DNA of 64,000 nt from Paracoccaceae bacterium (GTDB taxonomy: Bacteria > Pseudomonadota > Alphaproteobacteria > Rhodobacterales > Rhodobacteraceae): NCBI GenBank assembly GCA_965214325.1, contig CBDCBG010000004.1, positions 190,843-254,842 on the forward strand, written 5' to 3'. This document shows, one piece after another, positions 25,422 to 50,668 of this stretch. How positions within the stretch are numbered: the stretch's first letter is position 1; every line of letters begins with the position of its first letter. The notes under the pieces were generated by a model. The model had not been told where the DNA came from. It did not search any database and saw nothing but the letters and a program-made list of their open reading frames with translations. Both the position numbers and the translations under genes were made by a program.

Positions 25422-26811
25422 TCAAGCGGCCACCTCGATTTCCTGATCCGTGTTTGCCGCATTGAAGAGCCCGGGATGCCAGGACTGGAACCTGGCCCTG
25501 AGCGTGCCGTCGAGCACGCGGGTCCTGGTCTGGAGCATGAGGTGCGCTCCGGATCTTGACCATCGCATCTGCCGCTTCTTCGAGAAGCGCTTTCCCACGA
25601 CCGTGTTGACCGTGGATTCGACGAACGCGGTCGACACCCGTTCCCCGTATCGATGGCGCTCGGCGCAGTTCGGCATGGTGTGGGCATTGTTGGCGACGCA
25701 GGCCTGGAACTCGCAGGCACCCTTTCGGAACGCCTTGATGTTCGGACACCGGGTCTTGATGCACTCAAGGCCGGCGACAAGGTCGTCGATGCAGGGAAGG
25801 GCCGCACGGACATTGCCGTGCCACAGGAACCCCTTGACGCGTCCCGGCGCCCGGTCGATTCCTTCCGCTTCCTCCCGGTCGCGGTGATGGGCGGCAAGGC
25901 CCTTGGCGCACTGCCTCGGCACCGTGATGCGCATGGTGACGTGGAACCGGTCGAGCACATGCCCGGCGCAGGGCGACATGAATTCCGCCATGCTGCGGAT
26001 GCTGTCCTCGCCGTCGGCCAGGAACGTGATCTCCTGGTTCATCTGCAGGCCCTGTTCCTGCAATGCATCGTGCAGTCGGCGCCCGGGTTTTTCGTCAAGG
26101 CTCTGCACAAGGCCGAAGCAACGGTCTCCCCTGTCCGCCGCGACGGACTTTCCGACCACGACCTCGAAGTTCGTCAGCCGTCCCTCGCCGTCTCTTTCGC
26201 GGGCACGAACGCATCCTCCGTCCATCCCGACGATGATCGGGCCTTCGGCCGGCGGCAGCGCGGCATGGTCTCGCGGCGCGCCTTCGACGAAGCTGAACCG
26301 CTCCTCCCCCAGTTCCCCTTCCATGCGGTTCGCCGCATGGTGGAGGTGGTTGCGCACGGTCTCGGCGTTGAGCGCGGCACCGACGGGAAGCACGTCCTTG
26401 AGCAGGCCCGCCGTGGCATCGAAGGAGACCGGGGAAGCCCGTTTCGTTTCCGGACAGGGCATTTCCGGCGCGACATGCTCTTGGAAGAGGCTCGCAAGAG
26501 GATTGAAGGTCTCTCCGTCCTCGCTGCCGTTGCAGGAACAGCGTTCCAGTCGCGGCCCGGCAATCGGGATGTCGCCGAAGGGCGTTCGGAACCGGAACGT
26601 ACGCCGGCCCTTGCTCCAGAGGCGGTTTCCGCAGCGGGGGCAGGACCGGCTGTCCTCCACGAAGGCGGCGGCCTGCGCCGCAACGATCCGCTCCTGAAGC
26701 CGCCCGAGGAGATCCTTGGCCTCGTCGAGCGACAGAGCCCGGTCCGCTCAAGCGCGTCGTGCGGCCTGTCGAGTTCCAGCACGTCCTCGTCGATGAAACT
26801 GACTTCCCCGG
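25422..26811 (-). pseudogene. ISKra4-family transposase, split by an IS66-type insertion and frameshifted
   Basis: CPRCGN zinc motif, FLADGEDSIRS, HVLDRFHV, ESTVNTVVGKRFSKKRQMRW. The first 13 codons (MKIGIRLKIDAGE) lie at 29157..29119 beyond the insertion. There is an extra 1-nt frameshift near 26,690. Confidence 0.6.
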
Positions 26812-26830
26812 GTAACTGCTCACCCCATTT

Positions 26831-28291
26831 TCAGGCATCCTGATCGAGACAGTCAACGGCCTTTCCCTTGAGGGCGATCATGATGGCGACGAGCGGGTTG
26901 TATCCGAGCGCGGCCATTGTCCGGAGGTAGCTCGATATGCGGCACCAGGCGTGTGCGAACGCGACGCTTCGGAAGCAGCCCGATATCTTCTGCTTGACCT
27001 TGGCCATCCTGAAGTCGCGCTCCGCCCGGTTGTTCGAGAACGGGGTGTCGGCACGCCTTGTGAAGCGCAGGACGTTCCGTCTCTGGGCGGCGAGGCGTTC
27101 GAGAAGGTTGTGGGCATCGGACCTGGCGACCGGTCCGCGGCGGCCCTTCCGCCTCTTCGGGATCTCGGGCATCTCCTTTCGGCCCTGCTCCAGGATCTCC
27201 CTGTAGCATCGTGCGACTCGCCTGTAGTGGCGCATGGAGAGCCGCCTGTCCGGCCGTCGCATGACCTGCCGCCGCGCGATGAGCAGCAGCTTGCGCATCC
27301 TCTCCGCCCACGGCCAGCCGTTGCTGTCGGTCGCGGCCTGAAGCTCGCGCAGCAAATGGGGGCAGCAGAGCTGATGCTTGCAGTTCGTGTAGGTGAGGTA
27401 CGCCTTCCAGCAGTCGTGGACGATGACGCCTCCGTACCGGGGGATGATCCCGATGTCGTCGATGGCCTCGCATCCGCGCTTCCGGTGCAGCCGCTTGACG
27501 GTGACCGGGCCGCCGGAGCAGACGTGGATCCAGTGGTTCCTTCCGTCCACCCGCAGCGAGGTTTCGTCGACGTTCAGCACGGGCATCGCGAGGAGCTTCC
27601 CGATCGCGGCGGCCTCCCATGTTTCCAGCGCCTGATGCAGGCGCGAGACGAAGCCGAGAAGCGTGGCCTCGGAGAGCAGCCGTCCGGTCGTCGCCTGGAT
27701 CATGGCCGCGGTCCGCTTGAGCGGGACCATCTGCGCGCAGAGCAGGTGCACGGCATAGGCGACGATGCCGGGTCCGTACTGCAGCGGCCCCGGCATGGTG
27801 TCGGGGAACGCGCCCTTGTTCCGGGCGCGGCAGCGCGGGCAGTCCTTGATCTCGGCCTCGACCCGGCGCTCGACGGTCTCGAAGACGATGTCGATCTCGA
27901 CGCGTGCCTCGTGTCCGGAGCACGCGGTTCCGGACAGGTCGTGGCCGCATTGCCGGCACGCGGTGACCGAGCTGGATTCCGTGACGGTGACCGTGCGCAG
28001 GTTGCCCGGTTCCGTCTCCCTCGCCTTCGGCCCCTTGCTGCGGGAGCCCTTGCCGGCGCGCCGCGCGGTCTCGTCCCTGTCCGTCTGCGACGGCGGGAGG
28101 CCGGAGTTGCGCGAGGTCTTCGGCGTCGTCTTCTCGAGGAACACCGCCACCAAGATGTCCAGAAGCAGGAACAGGGCGTCGATCAGCGCGAGGGTTTCGG
28201 CGCCCGCCTCGCCCTTCCGCTTGATGCCGTCGAACCGGGCCCGGCAATCGTCCATCTGCGCGCGCAGCGATGCCCCGTTCACCGTCGGCAT
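26831..28291 (-). CDS. IS66-family transposase (single-ORF type)
   Basis: 486 aa. CRQCGHDL and CPRCRA zinc motifs, VDETSLRVDGRNHWIHV, HQLCCPHLLREL, SNNRAERDFRMAKVKQKISGCFRS. Confidence 0.85.
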   Translation of the reverse strand: MPTVNGASLRAQMDDCRARFDGIKRKGEAGAETLALIDALFLLLDILVAVFLEKTTPKTSRNSGLPPSQTDRDETARRAGKGSRSKGPKARETEPGNLRTVTVTESSSVTACRQCGHDLSGTACSGHEARVEIDIVFETVERRVEAEIKDCPRCRARNKGAFPDTMPGPLQYGPGIVAYAVHLLCAQMVPLKRTAAMIQATTGRLLSEATLLGFVSRLHQALETWEAAAIGKLLAMPVLNVDETSLRVDGRNHWIHVCSGGPVTVKRLHRKRGCEAIDDIGIIPRYGGVIVHDCWKAYLTYTNCKHQLCCPHLLRELQAATDSNGWPWAERMRKLLLIARRQVMRRPDRRLSMRHYRRVARCYREILEQGRKEMPEIPKRRKGRRGPVARSDAHNLLERLAAQRRNVLRFTRRADTPFSNNRAERDFRMAKVKQKISGCFRSVAFAHAWCRISSYLRTMAALGYNPLVAIMIALKGKAVDCLDQDA

Positions 28292-28953
28292 CACTCCGCC
28301 TCCACCGCCATGATCGCCGAGACCACCGCGAGCCGCTCGCCCGGCGGCATCTTCCGGTAGCCCTCCGCCCAGCGGGCGGCCTTGCGCCTGATGCGCTGGC
28401 GGTCGGTCCTGTCCCGCCCGGCATGGCCGGCCCAGTGCATCCGGTCGGGCGCGAAGTTGAACCAGACCACCTCGGTGCGGACCTGGCCCTGGGTCGTCAC
28501 CTGAAGCGCGATCCGGCGCCAGTCCCGCAGCATGTCGTCGTACAGCGCCGAGGGGTGTCCCGAGACCATCACCTGGCACGGCAGGCCCTTGAGCAGGTCG
28601 AGGAGCGCGACATGGTCGGCCTCGGCGTAGTCGTGGCGGTACCGCCGCCGCGACCGGCGGGTCGCGTGCAGGTACGGCGGGTCGCTGTAGACCAGTTCCG
28701 TGCCCCGGAACGGGAAGCCGGCCAGGAACGCGTGCGCGCAGCCGTGCACCAGCTCCACCGGGTAGCCGCACTCGAACCCGTCAATCGCGCGCCGGTCCCG
28801 GTCGATCCCGATGCTGCGCGCCGCCGGGGCCTTGCGCTTCATCAGCGCGCCGCCCCCGAGATGAGACTCCAGATAAAGATCGTGCGGGGGCTGGAGTCCC
28901 AGAAGCATCTGGCACAGCCCGCTCGTTGCCTTGGAACCAAAATATCCCATCAA
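28291..28953 (-). CDS. DNA N6-adenine methyltransferase (D12/Dam class)
   Basis: YFGSK N-terminal motif and catalytic DPPY (VYSDPPYL). 220 aa. The stop overlaps the transposase ATG (TGATG). Confidence 0.8.
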   Translation of the reverse strand: MMGYFGSKATSGLCQMLLGLQPPHDLYLESHLGGGALMKRKAPAARSIGIDRDRRAIDGFECGYPVELVHGCAHAFLAGFPFRGTELVYSDPPYLHATRRSRRRYRHDYAEADHVALLDLLKGLPCQVMVSGHPSALYDDMLRDWRRIALQVTTQGQVRTEVVWFNFAPDRMHWAGHAGRDRTDRQRIRRKAARWAEGYRKMPPGERLAVVSAIMAVEAE

Positions 28954-29491
28954 CGGTCCCCGTCGCTCACGGGAACCGCCGATAACCGGATCAGTCTACG
29001 GTGTCAACTCCCCTCGCCACCGACGTCCCGTGCGGCGGGCCCCGGCCAGTCAGCGCCTCCAATGATCTCGTCGGATGTCACCCCGACATCGTTCCGGAAC
29101 TAGGGGGTGAGCAGGTACTTCCCCGGCATCGATCTTCAGCCTGATCCCGATCTTCATGTCGCTCCCCCGCAACGGCTTTCCAGAACGGGCAGAGAGGAAA
29201 ACCCGCGCGGCGCAGGCCCCTCCGTCACGGTGGATCCTGACGATGGAACGAGGCAGGCCGCAACCCGGCTTGCTTTCCGTAACGACGAGTGCCAATCCGT
29301 GAACGGCTGCATCGAGCGCATTTCCGGCGAGATCACCGACATCCTGCTGCGGGAAGGCATCGACCACATGTCCAGACCATGGCCGTCTTCAAGGCCGCAC
29401 GCCGACATCGGCGCGACGCGCATCCATGCCGGGACAAGCATCGCGATGCTGCAACGCAAGTTCGGCCAGGTTGCGGATCCGGCCGGCCGCG

Positions 29492-31867
29492 CAATGGCAT
29501 TGAGTTTGGCCGGAACAGATTTTCCTGATTTCCGCGACCGGCCAAAGACCATGTCCTGAGGCGTTTGCTTGCGCGCGCCGGAATCTTTCGTTCAGGCCTG
29601 CCTCATGGATCGGCCCGGTTCAATGTAGCGTCGAATCAGTCCGTCCCGAGGGAGGCCGCGATGGATCCGCGCATCGAGAACCTGGAGACCACCACCTTTT
29701 TCGGCAAGCGGCTGACCCGCAGGCAGATCGCGGTCATGCAGGAGATGGTCGAGCTGTTCCCGAAGGACAGCCGGCGGGAGCTGGCCCGCACGCTGTGCGA
29801 GAACTTCAACTGGCACACGCCGTCCGGAACCTGCAGGGAGCAGTTCTGCCTGCGGGTTCTCGAAAAGCTGGAGACGCTGGGCATCCTGACCCTGCCGGAA
29901 CGGCGCGAGACGGGCGGGCGGCGCGGGCCTTCCGCCCGCACCGAAGCCGGCGAGCCCGGCGAGCCGGTCGATGCGCCGCTCCGGGACCTGGAGCCGGTCA
30001 CGCTGGAGGTCGCCGCCGACGGGCGGGACCTTGCCGAATGGACCGAGCTCGTGGACCGCTGCCATCCGCGCGGCTACAGGTCGCCCATCGGCTGCCACCT
30101 CGCGTATTTCGTCCTCGACGGCAGCGGCCGCCGCCTGGGCTGCCTGATGTTCGAGAGCTCCGGGTCGCTTCCGGTCCGCGACGCATGGATCGGATGGACG
30201 GAGCGCCAGCGCGAGGACGGCCTCCGGCGGGTTGTCCGGCACAGCCGCTTTTTGGTGTTTCCATGGGTCCGTGTCAGGAACCTGGCCTCCCGGTCGCTGT
30301 CGCTGGCGACCCGCCGGGTCGCCGACGACTGGCACCGGCGCTGGGGCGTGCGCCCGCTTCTGGCGGAGACGTTCGTCGACCCGCAGGAGCAGGAGGGCAG
30401 CTGCTACCGCGCGGCGGGATGGAAGGGGATCGGCGCCACCGCCTCCCGCGCGCCCAAGGACGTGTACGTGACCGAGCTGGAAACGGACGCCCGGGCCGCG
30501 CTGCGCGGCGAGCGGAAGGAAGCGGGAGGCAAGCCGGCCCGCGCCCCCGAAAGCGCCCGGACGGTCGCCGGGATGTGGAGCGCGGTCGCCGCCGCCGCCG
30601 CCAGGACGGCCGAGCGCCACGACCGCGAGTGGCGGGTGCGCCGGCGACTGATCGGCACCTTCCTGGTCGTCCTCTTCGTCCTCCGCCTGGTGTTCGGGAC
30701 CGGGCGCAGCTACGGCGATGCCCTCGCCGAGATCTGGGAGAACGCGCGCAGCCTGGGGGTGGCGCTGCCGCAGGAAAGCCCGGTGACGCCGTCGGCGATG
30801 TCCCGGGCGCGCGCCAAGGTCGATCCGCAGGTCTTCAGGGACCTCCACCGGGAGGTCCTCGCCCGGGCTCCGGACCGCCCGCTCTGGAAGGGGCGGCGGG
30901 TCTTCGGCGTCGACGGCGCCAAGGTCAACCTGCCGCCGCCGCTTGCTGATGCCGAGACTGCCGGCCGACTTCGGCCTGTACGCCGACACCAACGAGCGGC
31001 GCGCCGCCGTCGAGCACCTCAGGACCCTGTCCGCCGGGGACGTGGTCGTCCACGACCGGGGCTGTTTCTCCTGCGAGATGCTTCTCGCCCATGTCGTCCG
31101 GGGCCAGGACGCCGTGTTCCGGCTCAAGCGGGACGCGAACGCGGAGACCGTCGCCTTCCTCGCCGGCCCGCTGGAAGAGAGGCTGGTCTGGATCCGGCCC
31201 GACGACAGGGCGCTGGCCCGGCTGAAGGCCCGCCACCCCGGCGCGGCGTTCGGGCCGCTGAAGCTTAGGCTGGTCCGCTACGCCGCCGGCGACACCGTCT
31301 TCGCCCTCGGCACCACCTTGGCCGCCGAAGACGGCTTCACCGTCGAGGACCTGGCAGGCATCTGCAGGGCGCGCTGGCGCATCGAGGAGATGTACAAGAC
31401 CGCGAAGTGGTTCCTGGCCGTCGAGTCCTTCCGCTCCGAAAGCGAGCGCGGCGTCCTCCAGGAACTCTACGCCAACTTCGTCATGGTCACCGCGACCCGC
31501 CTCATGACCAACGAGATCGACGGGGAGATCAACGCCTCGCCGGACGGCAGGCCGCCGAAAAGGGTGAACTTCAAGCACGCCGTCGCCGCCGTCTTCCGCA
31601 ACTTCGAGGCCCTCGCGCTCGTCCAGGCCGATGCCGTCGCCGAAACCGTCGCGCGGATCGTCGACGACGTCGCCGCCCTCTGGCAGCGGGAACGGCCCGG
31701 CCGCAGCTACCCAAGGGTGTCGTTCAAGCCGAAAAGCAAATGGGCACGGAAGGGGAAGGTCGCCGCAGCAAGCTGAGCCGCTTCCACCCGAAAGACCGGC
31801 CTTCCGGTGCAGGACCACCCACGTCCCGTTAAGTCAACAACCCTGATTCCTTAAGTCAATGCCATTG
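29492..31867 (+). mobile_element. IS4-type element with DUF4338-DDE fusion transposase, copy 1 (deleted/frameshifted)
   Basis: Termini CAATGGCATTGA... / ...CAATGCCATTG. 10-bp TSD GCCGGCCGCG at 29482..29491 and 31868..31877. About 82 bp shorter than copy 2. Confidence 0.8.
29661..31776 (+). pseudogene. DUF4338-IS4 DDE fusion transposase, inactivated by an internal deletion near 30,950
   Basis: Colinear with 37196..39385 up to GVDGAKVNLPPPL. About 82 nt are then missing and the frame shifts. The C-terminal part resumes in ORF 30943..31776. Confidence 0.8.
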
Positions 31868-48323: not shown

Positions 48324-48852
48324 CGGGCGGCCGCAGGGCCGGAAAACCCAAGAAAACCAGCAGGTTGGTCATGGAATCCCTTTTCAGATTCCCCTGAAGT
48401 TCCGCCTAGATGACCTTTGGGGGGACCGCAAAACCGTTCCCCCTGCTCTACGGGCCGCAAAACGGACTCTCCGGCGAAGTGCCGGAAACCGTGCGGAACA
48501 GGCCTTCGAGAGGTGCCTGGAAAATGATACCAGGCCATTCAGCGCGAACATCACTGCAATTTATACGAGTGCGACCGCTCCCGCACTTCCGCCCGTCGGC
48601 AGCCGGGTGCGAAACCGGTAGTCGATGCGGCGATCGCGGGTCCCTGCGATCAGGGTGCGGATTGCGGAAACGCGCCGCTGTCAAGCCCGCGGATCACGGG
48701 GCTTTCATGGCCGTCCGGATGGGCAGGACCGCCTCCCGGATCAAGGGCCGTGACACGCAACGAGCGCAGGTCAATGACAAAGTCCCGGCAGTCTCCGGGT
48801 CTCAGAGGCTGAATCATAAGTCATTGATTTGATATTGTTATTTGGTAACTGC

Positions 48853-50330
48853 TCACCCCTTTCCCAGGGCGGGTTGAGGGTCATGCAGTTCGATCATTTT
48901 GGCGGCATTTCCGGCGAGCGCGATCTGGATGGCGACGAGAGGGTTGTATCCGAGAGCCTCCATTGAGCTCAGGTAGCTCGAGATCCGGCACCAGGCGTGG
49001 GCGTGGAGTTGTGTCCGGAAGCATCCCGACACCTGATCTTGACCTTCGCCATGCGGATCTTCCGCTCCCCGGCATTGTTCGTGAAGCTGACGTCCGGGTC
49101 GCCCATGAAGCGCAGGACGGACCCTTCGTGCTTGACGAGGCGCTCATGGAGGTTGTGTGCATCGGACTTCGCGATCCGGCCGCGTTTTCCTTTCGGCTTC
49201 GGCGGGATGACGGGCAACTCGTTGCCCCCCTGGGTCAGGATGGTCCGGTAGCGCCTGCGCACGGCCGTGCGCCCGTCCTCGGGCAGGGTCTTGGTGTCGC
49301 TCCTGTTGACCCTGTGGCAGGCCTCGCGCAGCAGCCTCTTCATCAGGCGCGCCCAGCGGTAGCCGTTGGAGTCGACGACGAAGGTCAGCTCCCGCAGGAG
49401 GTGAGAGCCACAGAGCTGATGGCTGCACTGGTCGTAGGCGAAGTACGATGCCCAGCAGTCGTGGACCAGGGTGCCTGTGCAGCGGGGGATGATGCCGATG
49501 TCCTCGATCGCCTCCTTTCCGCGCTTGCGGTGCAGGAACTTCAGGGTCAGGGACCCGTCGGTGACGACATGGAGCCATTGGGTTCTGCCGTCGACCCGGA
49601 AGCCGGTCTCGTCGGCATGCAGGGCCGGGCGTTCCAGCAGCTGTGCGATGGCGGCGTGCTCCCATGATGCGAGGGCGTCATGAAGGCGGCGCACGCAGCC
49701 CAGGCAGGTGGCTTCGGAGAGCCTGAGGCCCGAGATCGCCTGCACCAGCGCGACGGCCCGGCGCAGCGACAGCATGTGGGCGCCCGGCAGGTTGACGACG
49801 AAGGCCTGGAGGCCGGCGCCGTACTGCAGCGGGCCCGGCATGTCGTCGGGGAACCGGCCCTTGGTGCGGGCCCGGCAGTCCGGGCATTCCTTGACCTCGG
49901 CCTCCACGCGGCGCTCGACGACCTCGAACACGATGTCGTGCAGGACGCGACGTTCCCGGCCGGCGGGGTCGACGCCGGACAGGTCGGCGCCGCATGTGTC
50001 GCAGGCCTCGACGGCGACCGTCTCCTCGACGGTGGTCTTCCGGAGGTTGTCGCCCGTCTGCAGGTTCGGCTTCGCGCCCTTGCCGCTGCTGCCGGCGCGC
50101 CGTGCGGTCCCGTCCCTGTCCGTCTGCGACGGCGGGAGGCTGGAGTTCCTCGATCCCTTGCGGGTCGTCCTTTCCAGCAGGACGGCGATCAGCACGCTCA
50201 TCAGCGTGATCAGCATCGCGAACATCGCGTCGGCTTCCGCCGACACCTTGCCGGCCTCGCGCAGCGTCTTGATCCGCGCCTTTGCCGCCTCGAACTCGTC
50301 GCGCAGCGACGCCGCGTTCACCGTCGCCAT
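48853..50330 (-). pseudogene. IS66-family transposase with C-terminal frameshift
   Basis: Colinear with 26831..28291 until AKVKI. The expected ...VSGCFRTQLHAHAWCRISSYLSSMEALGYNPL continues in another frame and ends at a TGA inside the IR. Confidence 0.75.
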
Positions 50331-50668
50331 CACCCGGCCTCCACCGCGAGCCGCTCGCCCGGGGGCGTCGCGCGGCAGCGGCGCTGCGACCTGCGCGTCG
50401 ACTGCACGCAGGGCGGCTCGCGGCCCTGGAAGTCGAAGCCGGACAGGAAGCGGCGGGCGCAGCCATGGCGGAGCTCGACGGGGCAGTCCCGTCCGAAGCC
50501 GTCGGTCGCCCGGCGGTCCAGGCCGATGCCGCGCTGCGCGGGCGGCTTGCGCTTCATGATCGCGCCGCCGCCCAAGCGCGTTTCCAGACATGCGGAACGA
50601 GGCGGCATGAGGCTCACGATGGCCTGGCAGAGCCCCGTCGTCGCCTTTGACCCGTACCATGCCCCCAT
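50330..50668 (-). pseudogene. Dam-like methyltransferase remnant (internal deletion removes the DPPY region)
   Basis: MGAWYGSKATTGLCQ... aligns with 28291..28953, but the segment containing DPPY is missing (about 290 bp shorter). The same TGATG overlap with the transposase start is kept. Confidence 0.7.

Follow-up and report, generated by a model that had tools for sequence, protein, structure and literature searches.

A Upf31-like methyltransferase-fold gene with a candidate promoter and operator-like dyad precedes the transposase gene of an IS66-family insertion sequence

Insertion sequences (ISs) are usually seen as a transposase and its two ends, and the accessory genes of the IS66 family are still unexplained. 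A stretch of 64,000 nucleotides from a Paracoccaceae bacterium (GenBank assembly GCA_965214325.1, contig CBDCBG010000004.1, positions 190,843 to 254,842 of the forward strand; hereafter the window) raises this question directly. At window positions 26812-29118 it contains an IS66-family element in which a gene for a Dam-like DNA methyltransferase fold precedes and overlaps the transposase gene, an arrangement first noticed in a prediction made from the sequence alone (the original prediction). What does a methylase-like gene do at the head of an IS? The answer that we favour, with moderate confidence, is that the protein, a homologue of the plasmid protein Upf31, serves mainly in the autoregulation of the methylase-transposase operon.

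The element is 2,307 bp long and has two genes, both on the minus strand. At the transposase-distal end, the terminal inverted repeat reads GTAACTGCTCACCCC (26812-26826, plus strand) and is identical in all sister copies. The repeat at the methylase-proximal end (GGGGTGAGCAGGTAC, 29104-29118, plus strand) differs from it by one mismatch in the window copy (14/15 positions match); in the sister copies it reads GGGGTGAGCAGTTAC and the match is perfect (15/15). The 8-bp target site duplication TTCCCCGG flanks the element on the left (26804-26811) and on the right (29119-29126). When the genome (5.66 Mb, 6 contigs) was searched with the element by BLAST, four additional full copies were found at 99.3-99.7% identity, together with one copy split by an insertion of ~3.5 kb and one end fragment. 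The copy at C6:4673355 is a decayed relic. The 8-bp direct repeat is different at each complete copy (CGGCGTTT, AAAAGAAG, TCGCTTTC, AGATCTAT and CATGAGTC), and six independent insertions, each with a distinct 8-bp duplication, were recognized. Furthermore, a paralogue at C4:265088-265848 contains the joined flanks of the window copy as one unbroken sequence (98.3% over 765 bp). Since this uninterrupted paralogue carries a single TTCCCCGG, it represents a true empty site. The window element is a recently mobile insertion sequence, and chance is excluded. The length, the 15-bp inverted repeats and the 8-bp duplication given in the original prediction all held, including in the sister copies and at the empty site.

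The insertion target (window 25422-26811 and 29127-29560) is itself repeated, with paralogues at C4:265088-265848 and C5:412366-412956. It encodes, on the minus strand, a Cys-rich protein of 412 aa (25422-26660) without a Pfam match, which is possibly an unclassified transposase. The insertion point of one sister copy of the IS66 element (G000 C6:916690-920453) is only 13 bp away from the end of a further, related IS66 element; elements of this kind are piling up on one another.

The transposase gene (26831-28291, minus strand; ATG at 28291-28289, stop at 26833-26831) is an intact open reading frame (ORF) for an IS66-family DDE transposase of 486 aa. The protein matched PF03050 (E 2.6e-41; 142 bits, cut-off 23.1) and the NCBIfam model NF033517 for IS66 (243.6 bits, cut-off 180), which bears out the family assignment of the original prediction. 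In agreement with this family, an 8-bp target duplication was found in the window element and also in the distant relative L045, and inverted repeats within the range of ~15-30 bp occur at both ends (GTAACTGCTCACCCC); they begin with GTAA, a start typical of IS66-family inverted repeats. No tnpA or tnpB was found inside the inverted repeats, where only two ORFs are present, the upstream one being methylase-like. Therefore, the element was placed with the tnpA/tnpB-less subgroup of IS66, which we take to be the ISBst12-type organisation of the ISfinder grouping. It is an autonomous IS66-family insertion sequence of this type, and it shares with the subgroup a TnpC-type DDE transposase, the 8-bp duplication and the short GTAA repeats. 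Unlike the subgroup, it adds a Upf31-like gene, with a candidate promoter and dyad of its own, that overlaps the transposase gene.

The first gene (28291-28953, minus strand; start at TTG 28953 or ATG 28950, TGA at 28293-28291) encodes a protein of 220 aa. As the original prediction had stated, its stop codon overlaps the transposase start as TGATG (28293-28289); a Shine-Dalgarno-like GGAGGCGGAG is located just 5' of the transposase ATG, within the end of the methylase gene. The protein contains YFGSK (FGSK at residues 5-8), LGGGA (residues 32-36) and DPPY (residues 91-94), and thereby both the S-adenosylmethionine (SAM)-binding motif I and the (D/N)PPY motif of the D12 class. A C-terminal helical hairpin with an invariant W195 occupies residues 182-218. 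The profile scores fell below their cut-offs: 14.4 bits for PF02086 (MethyltransfD12; cut-off 22) and 18.6 bits for TIGR00571 (dam; E 1.2e-3, cut-off 114.85), and the match to DpnM (2dpm, E 8e-4) was restricted to the surroundings of DPPY. Nevertheless, relatives at 40-48% identity exceed the PF02086 threshold, and phrog_56 (DNA methyltransferase) was matched with an E value of 1.6e-20. The AlphaFold model (predicted local distance difference test score, pLDDT, 81.5; predicted template-modelling score, pTM, 0.74) consists of a Rossmann methyltransferase core and the C-terminal hairpin, and its nearest PDB folds are DpnM, E. coli Dam and McbE1 (template-modelling score, TM, about 0.5). Because of the motifs, the threshold-passing relatives, the phrog_56 match and the fold, the assignment of the protein to the Dam-like (D12-class) superfamily is sound despite the sub-threshold scores. 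The D12-class methylase of the original prediction is upheld by its motifs and fold, and not by the MethyltransfD12 profile that had been proposed as a check.

The distance between the motif-I block and the DPPY block is 38 residues, compared with 129 in DpnM. In Dam-type enzymes, it is the stretch from motif I to DPPY that recognizes the target; ~90 residues corresponding to this target-recognition region are therefore missing from the window protein. The protein thus resembles the Dam family (E. coli Dam, T4 Dam and DpnM) in its Rossmann core, in the order of motif I before DPPY and in its best structural matches, but differs from it in the absence of this region, in the extra C-terminal hairpin, in the sub-threshold scores and in an activity that is putative. 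DPPY is invariant in an alignment of 35 sequences and in all 120 of 120 close homologues, and is kept in 118 of 124 full-length representatives. The library of representatives also includes three members (P0262, P0264 and P0245) that are fused to a C5-cytosine DNA methyltransferase domain (PF00145), like phage multi-methylases; because of these fusions, the wider family seems to consist, at least in part, of genuine DNA-modifying enzymes.

To what extent is the methylase-transposase pairing conserved? A word-index search returned 3,092 homologues of the methylase, the best 120 of which were 65-95% identical. Many of these were on contigs of 2-3 kb, as expected because the repeat breaks assemblies. 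HMMER against 50% representatives gave 5,774 clusters, and 383 stretches from one-genome-per-species contigs encode a relative. Among the 80 best loci of these stretches, all from other genomes, an IS66-type transposase lies directly downstream in 78. The pairing is found in several phyla and spans at least four deep lineages of the IS66 transposase. Its hosts are metagenome-assembled genomes (MAGs) that carry the labels Paracoccaceae, Rhodobacterales, other Alphaproteobacteria, Dehalococcoidia and Tectimicrobiota. Acidiferrobacter and mine-drainage metagenomes contribute further cluster members, whose only annotation there is "DNA methylase" or "phage DNA methylase". The same arrangement was seen in further lineages sampled, and every sampled context was IS66 except that of L122, whose partner is a very distant IS66-like protein with a faint, below-threshold IS66 match. 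The contexts of the more distant homologues P0127, P0131 and P0137 were non-IS or uninformative. The IS-type gene was found in none of 400 other sampled genomes of the same phylum, 21 of which belong to the same family, and the distribution within the phylum of the window is patchy.

The genome of the window carries a second methylase-bearing IS of 2,346 bp (L017:3252-5597 = G000 C6:2077751-2080096; inverted repeat GTAAGCGG (GTAAGCGGTTAAAG)), which is present in at least five copies at 99-100% identity. Its methylase is 66% identical to that of the window element and overlaps the transposase gene as ATGA. Its transposase of 526 aa has canonical TnpC-type motifs and, by tblastn, is not detectably similar to the window transposase. 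With the methylase gene inside the inverted repeats in all copies and the pairing so widely conserved, neither a methylase gene outside the repeats nor a lack of conservation, either of which would have spoken against the original prediction, was encountered. Its remark that a methylase is unusual as the first gene of an IS has to be given up, as the pairing occurs in thousands of copies. In acid-mine bacteria and in MAGs of marine and sponge type, the methylase-bearing IS66 elements are present in multiple copies.

Purifying selection acts on the methylase gene, whose pairwise ratios of nonsynonymous to synonymous divergence (dN/dS) are 0.13-0.49. Its conservation far exceeds that of its partner: methylases that are 76-97% identical have partner transposases whose identity drops to 29-77%. 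In a comparison of the locus L021 with the window element, the promoter and the methylase gene showed a nucleotide identity of 92-98%, which fell to about 55-75% exactly at the transposase start; the synonymous divergence (dS) was 0.14 for the methylase and 0.74 for the transposase. The identity breakpoint and the contrast in dS indicate that the promoter-methylase unit was recently exchanged between different IS66 lineages. Moreover, the same cassette is joined to transposases that are only 18-30% identical to one another.

Relatives of the first gene also occur outside ISs. By tblastn, plasmid matches were obtained in 174 records, all below 60% identity and mostly from conjugative plasmids. 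The match in the IncP-1beta plasmid pB1 covers genes annotated as "Upf31.0" and "DNA methylase", with 45-52% identity over residues 2-219, including DPPY and the helix RxRIKRKxARW. An orphan on a Xanthomonas plasmid (54% identity) is surrounded by transfer and stability genes and has no transposase in its vicinity. Homology to Upf31 is full-length and includes the C-terminal domain, and an inverted repeat directly follows the -35 box in the window element, as it does in the Upf31 family. Judged from these sequence features, the first gene is a member of the Upf31 family, an offshoot of the Dam-like methyltransferases without their recognition domain. Like Upf31 of the IncP-1beta plasmids pBP136 and R751 (PMC11997246), its product has ~220 aa, DPPY and C-terminal helices with a conserved tryptophan, and in its candidate promoter TTGAC precedes an inverted repeat that has the same axis. 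Unlike Upf31, which is encoded by a plasmid backbone gene and is thought to act through KorB, the window gene heads a transposase operon in an IS without KorB, and its half-sites are of the CCGTAG type instead of GCATCG.

Upf31 has been studied experimentally. It cut expression from its own 68-bp promoter about 50-fold, from 4.76 to 0.09 XylE units (Elg et al. 2025, PMC11997246), and this promoter, upf31p, lies within a region of inverted repeats, CAGCATCG (PMC11997246). The C-terminal domain of Upf31 was required for function, W198 being one of three aromatic residues mutated there (PMC11997246); the RxRIKRKxARW helix of the window protein carries the corresponding W. Methylation by Upf31 was detected in E. 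coli neither by DpnI/MboI digestion nor by SMRT (single-molecule, real-time) sequencing (PMC11997246). According to the primers, only the coding region was cloned for this methylation test (PMC11997246), from which we infer that the test would have overlooked a recognition site that is long and rare, for example the operator.

The control region of the window element was then considered. The methylase-proximal inverted repeat and the first gene are 150 bp apart. This interval contains a candidate promoter with an operator-like dyad (28975-29007, minus strand), which consists of a -35 box TTGACA (29007-29002), a 17-nt spacer and a -10 box TATCGG (28984-28979). The imperfect dyad ACCGTAGAC / ATCGGCGGT (29002-28975, minus strand) spans the promoter. 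Directly after the -10 box, the 5' untranslated region (5'-UTR) is predicted to form the hairpin CGGTTCCCGT-GAGCG-ACGGGGACCG (28954-28978, minus strand; 10-bp stem, -18.3 kcal/mol), with the Shine-Dalgarno sequence GGGGA within its 3' arm. In most of the IS-borne lineages folded, a comparable hairpin closely follows the -10 box and includes the Shine-Dalgarno sequence within the 3' arm; the hairpin sequences differ.

The layout was compared among the window element, the second element of the same genome, ~12 foreign lineages, the non-IS relative L106 and IncP-1beta pB1. Common to every lineage is a TTGAC that is followed at once by a half-site and, after ~10 nt, by the complementary half-site over the -10 box. 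The orphan of the Xanthomonas plasmid has no TTGAC, but upstream of its start there is an inverted repeat, GACTAT / ATAGTC. The half-sites themselves co-vary by lineage: CCATAG/CTATGG, CCATAGA/TCTATGG, ATAGGCG/CGCCTAT, ACGTAG/CTACGC, CACTCTA/AAGAGTG, ATCATAG/CTAGTGAT and CACCATAG/CTATGGTG were found, and GCATCG/CGATGC in IncP. Across 31 unique promoter variants, complementarity reached its maximum, 0.49, on one axis that lies 17.5 nt away from the initial T of TTGAC, compared with 0.11-0.34 at the 18 other axes tested. The dyad is imperfect in the window lineage and perfect in several others. Extra half-sites near the IS ends were represented by near-matches only in the window element and by none in L045 (2,437 bp, 8-bp duplication CCAAAAAC), the one foreign element analysed from end to end. 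In L045 the half-site occurs at the promoter only, which fits transcriptional control and not binding at the element ends.

The window also contains a sister IS66 element (48845-50862; inverted repeat GTAACTGCTCGCCCC), of which the genome has about 10 near-identical copies. Its transposase, 55% identical to that of the intact element, has a frameshift near residue 433; the inverted repeats of the two elements are almost the same. In this lineage the methylase is a remnant of 126 aa from which DPPY and the C-terminal half have been deleted, and the second half-site of the promoter dyad has decayed. The loss of the methylase together with the half-site fits a functional link between the protein and the dyad, and the ~10 copies with a destroyed methylase suggest that the gene is not needed in cis. 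To judge from its sequence, the truncated lineage may be a non-autonomous derivative that is mobilised in trans by the intact element.

In at least seven copies of the truncated lineage, an IS110-family element of 1,464 bp (L101:277-1741, G000 C6:88976-90441; 391-aa ORF starting MTIVVAGIDVSKK) is located at the identical position, the 3' end of the transposase gene. The window copy (window 49034) has the uninterrupted site. This pattern suggests site-specific targeting of the truncated IS by the IS110 element. The 1,464-bp insert had no Rfam match, and an intron was rejected as its identity in favour of the IS110-family element.

How might these features work together? We propose that a single promoter within the methylase-proximal end would produce a bicistronic methylase-transposase mRNA, in which the TGATG overlap would make the translation of the transposase largely dependent on that of the first gene. 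The operon would be repressed by the Upf31-like protein, which, probably as a dimer, would bind the dyad over the -35/-10 region. Because such a repressor would diffuse, it would act in trans on all copies, repression would rise with the copy number and the transposase supply would be inverse to it. The 5'-UTR hairpin, which would mask the ribosome-binding site, could be a second brake on translation. It may especially curb read-through transcripts entering from outside, as the corresponding structure does in IS10. IS-encoded regulators of transposase supply that act in trans are known from InsA of IS1, the inhibitor protein of Tn5 and fold-back inhibition in IS10. The proposed system would resemble them in a diffusible element-encoded repressor and in ribosome-binding-site masking that scale with the copy number; the window regulator differs in being an unrelated protein of methyltransferase fold, with a putative function, on an exchangeable cassette. 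The original prediction had suggested coupling to the methylation state, anti-restriction or epigenetic cargo as roles; autoregulation is better supported than these by the Upf31 data and the promoter-dyad layout.

Several points weigh against autoregulation as the chief role. The proposed repression is an extrapolation from Upf31, a plasmid homologue at ~47% identity, and the Upf31 phenotype also involves KorB, a partner that the window element lacks. The dyad of the window lineage is weak, with 6-7 of 9 positions pairing, an extra base in the second half-site and TATCGG in place of CTACGG there, and the -10 box of the window element is poor. The gene overlap is not universal, since 2-18 nt lie between the two genes in some lineages. 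The copy-number argument drawn from the truncated lineage is confounded by the frameshift and the near-identical repeats. Furthermore, a pure repressor would not need an invariant DPPY, and catalysis may be the main function.

The near-invariance of DPPY suggests that the catalytic site is still used. To judge from this motif, the protein could quite possibly also methylate DNA; the methyl group would go to adenine within a long and rarely occurring site, which might be the operator of the gene itself. Repression and methylation could then be joined in a bifunctional, operator-directed methyltransferase-repressor, which would bind the long dyad and methylate adenines there, leaving a heritable on/off mark for the transposase operon. 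Such a protein would find its DNA through the dimeric C-terminal or helix-turn-helix part without the Dam recognition domain, and the promoter-dyad-gene unit would be a portable governor of transposition, exchanged by recombination among plasmids and deep IS66 lineages. It would also explain why no methylation was seen with Upf31, which was expressed in E. coli without the operator. We put this combination forward tentatively and with some doubt.

The autoregulation reading has to be weighed against others in which the protein acts elsewhere. It may be an active orphan N6-adenine methyltransferase that is carried as cargo for restriction evasion or altered gene expression, the dyad being ordinary methylase autoregulation. 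The nearly invariant DPPY and SAM motifs agree with such cargo, as do a fold nearest to DpnM and E. coli Dam, the relatives near transfer genes on conjugative plasmids, the match to a phage methyltransferase family, the C5-cytosine methylase fusions and the spread of the element across phyla. However, ~90 residues corresponding to the Dam/DpnM recognition region are missing, and Upf31, the sole member tested, gave no methylation signal (PMC11997246). Anti-restriction also leaves unexplained both the fixed position upstream of, and overlapping, the transposase in many IS66 lineages and the purifying selection on each copy of multi-copy chromosomal elements. A cargo role is unlikely in our judgement. 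Alternatively, the methylase could couple transposition to replication, as Dam does with IS10 and IS50, such that only hemimethylated fresh copies would be active and the element would be independent of the host Dam. In the window lineage GATC is found ~50 bp inside both element ends and in the operator spacer, which would suit this scheme together with the conserved catalytic motifs. The GATC density of the element (7.4 per kb) shows no enrichment over the genome mean (7.7 per kb), which speaks against a simple Dam/IS10-type scheme, and the central GATC is missing from the operators of many other lineages. Since, in addition, Upf31 failed to restore GATC methylation (PMC11997246) and the one element checked, L045, has no dyad half-sites at its ends, we consider replication coupling improbable.

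A further proposal is that the protein replaces TnpA/TnpB as a transposition cofactor, through contact with the transposase or the transpososome and not through transcription. The methylase does fill the accessory-gene slot and would be co-translated with the transposase. Nevertheless, free swapping of the cassette among transposases that share 18-30% identity is not what would be expected of a specific protein partner; the plasmid homologues have no adjacent transposase; and the lineage with the destroyed methylase has still reached ~10 copies, though possibly with help in trans. The prospects of this proposal are poor. Insertion sequences sometimes carry passenger genes, and the loss of the gene from one lineage might likewise point to a neutral hitch-hiker without a role for the element. 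This is contradicted by the purifying selection, the invariant motifs, the retention of position and promoter across deep lineages and phyla, and the recent acquisition of the cassette by recombination; a neutral passenger is disfavoured and hardly credible. Autoregulation thus remains the role that we favour.

Two features at the margins of the element were also recorded. Only one sequence of the element fits the sigma-70-like consensus (TTGACT, 18 nt, GAAAAT; window 26827-26856, minus strand). It is located at the transposase-distal end and is directed outward, across the inverted repeat; as a candidate promoter, it could drive flanking genes after insertion. The neighbouring ORF at window 29565-31268 matched the DruA domain (PF14236, E 4e-24) and, weakly, an IS4 N-terminal domain.

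By its transposase, its duplication length and its ends, the element belongs to IS66. For a Upf31-like first gene with a promoter-dyad in an insertion sequence, and for any link between Upf31 and a transposon, no published description was found in the literature, ISfinder not being covered. The elements described here make up a large, cross-phylum IS66 group in which tnpA/tnpB are replaced by an exchangeable promoter-operator-methylase-fold cassette that also occurs on broad-host-range plasmids. Should the cassette prove to govern copy number, mobile elements would have a new and testable means of restraining the damage that they cause, and the Upf31 family, so far only partly understood in its function on IncP-1 plasmids, would gain a biological role. 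If the protein also methylates its own operator, the cassette would be a simple natural epigenetic switch.

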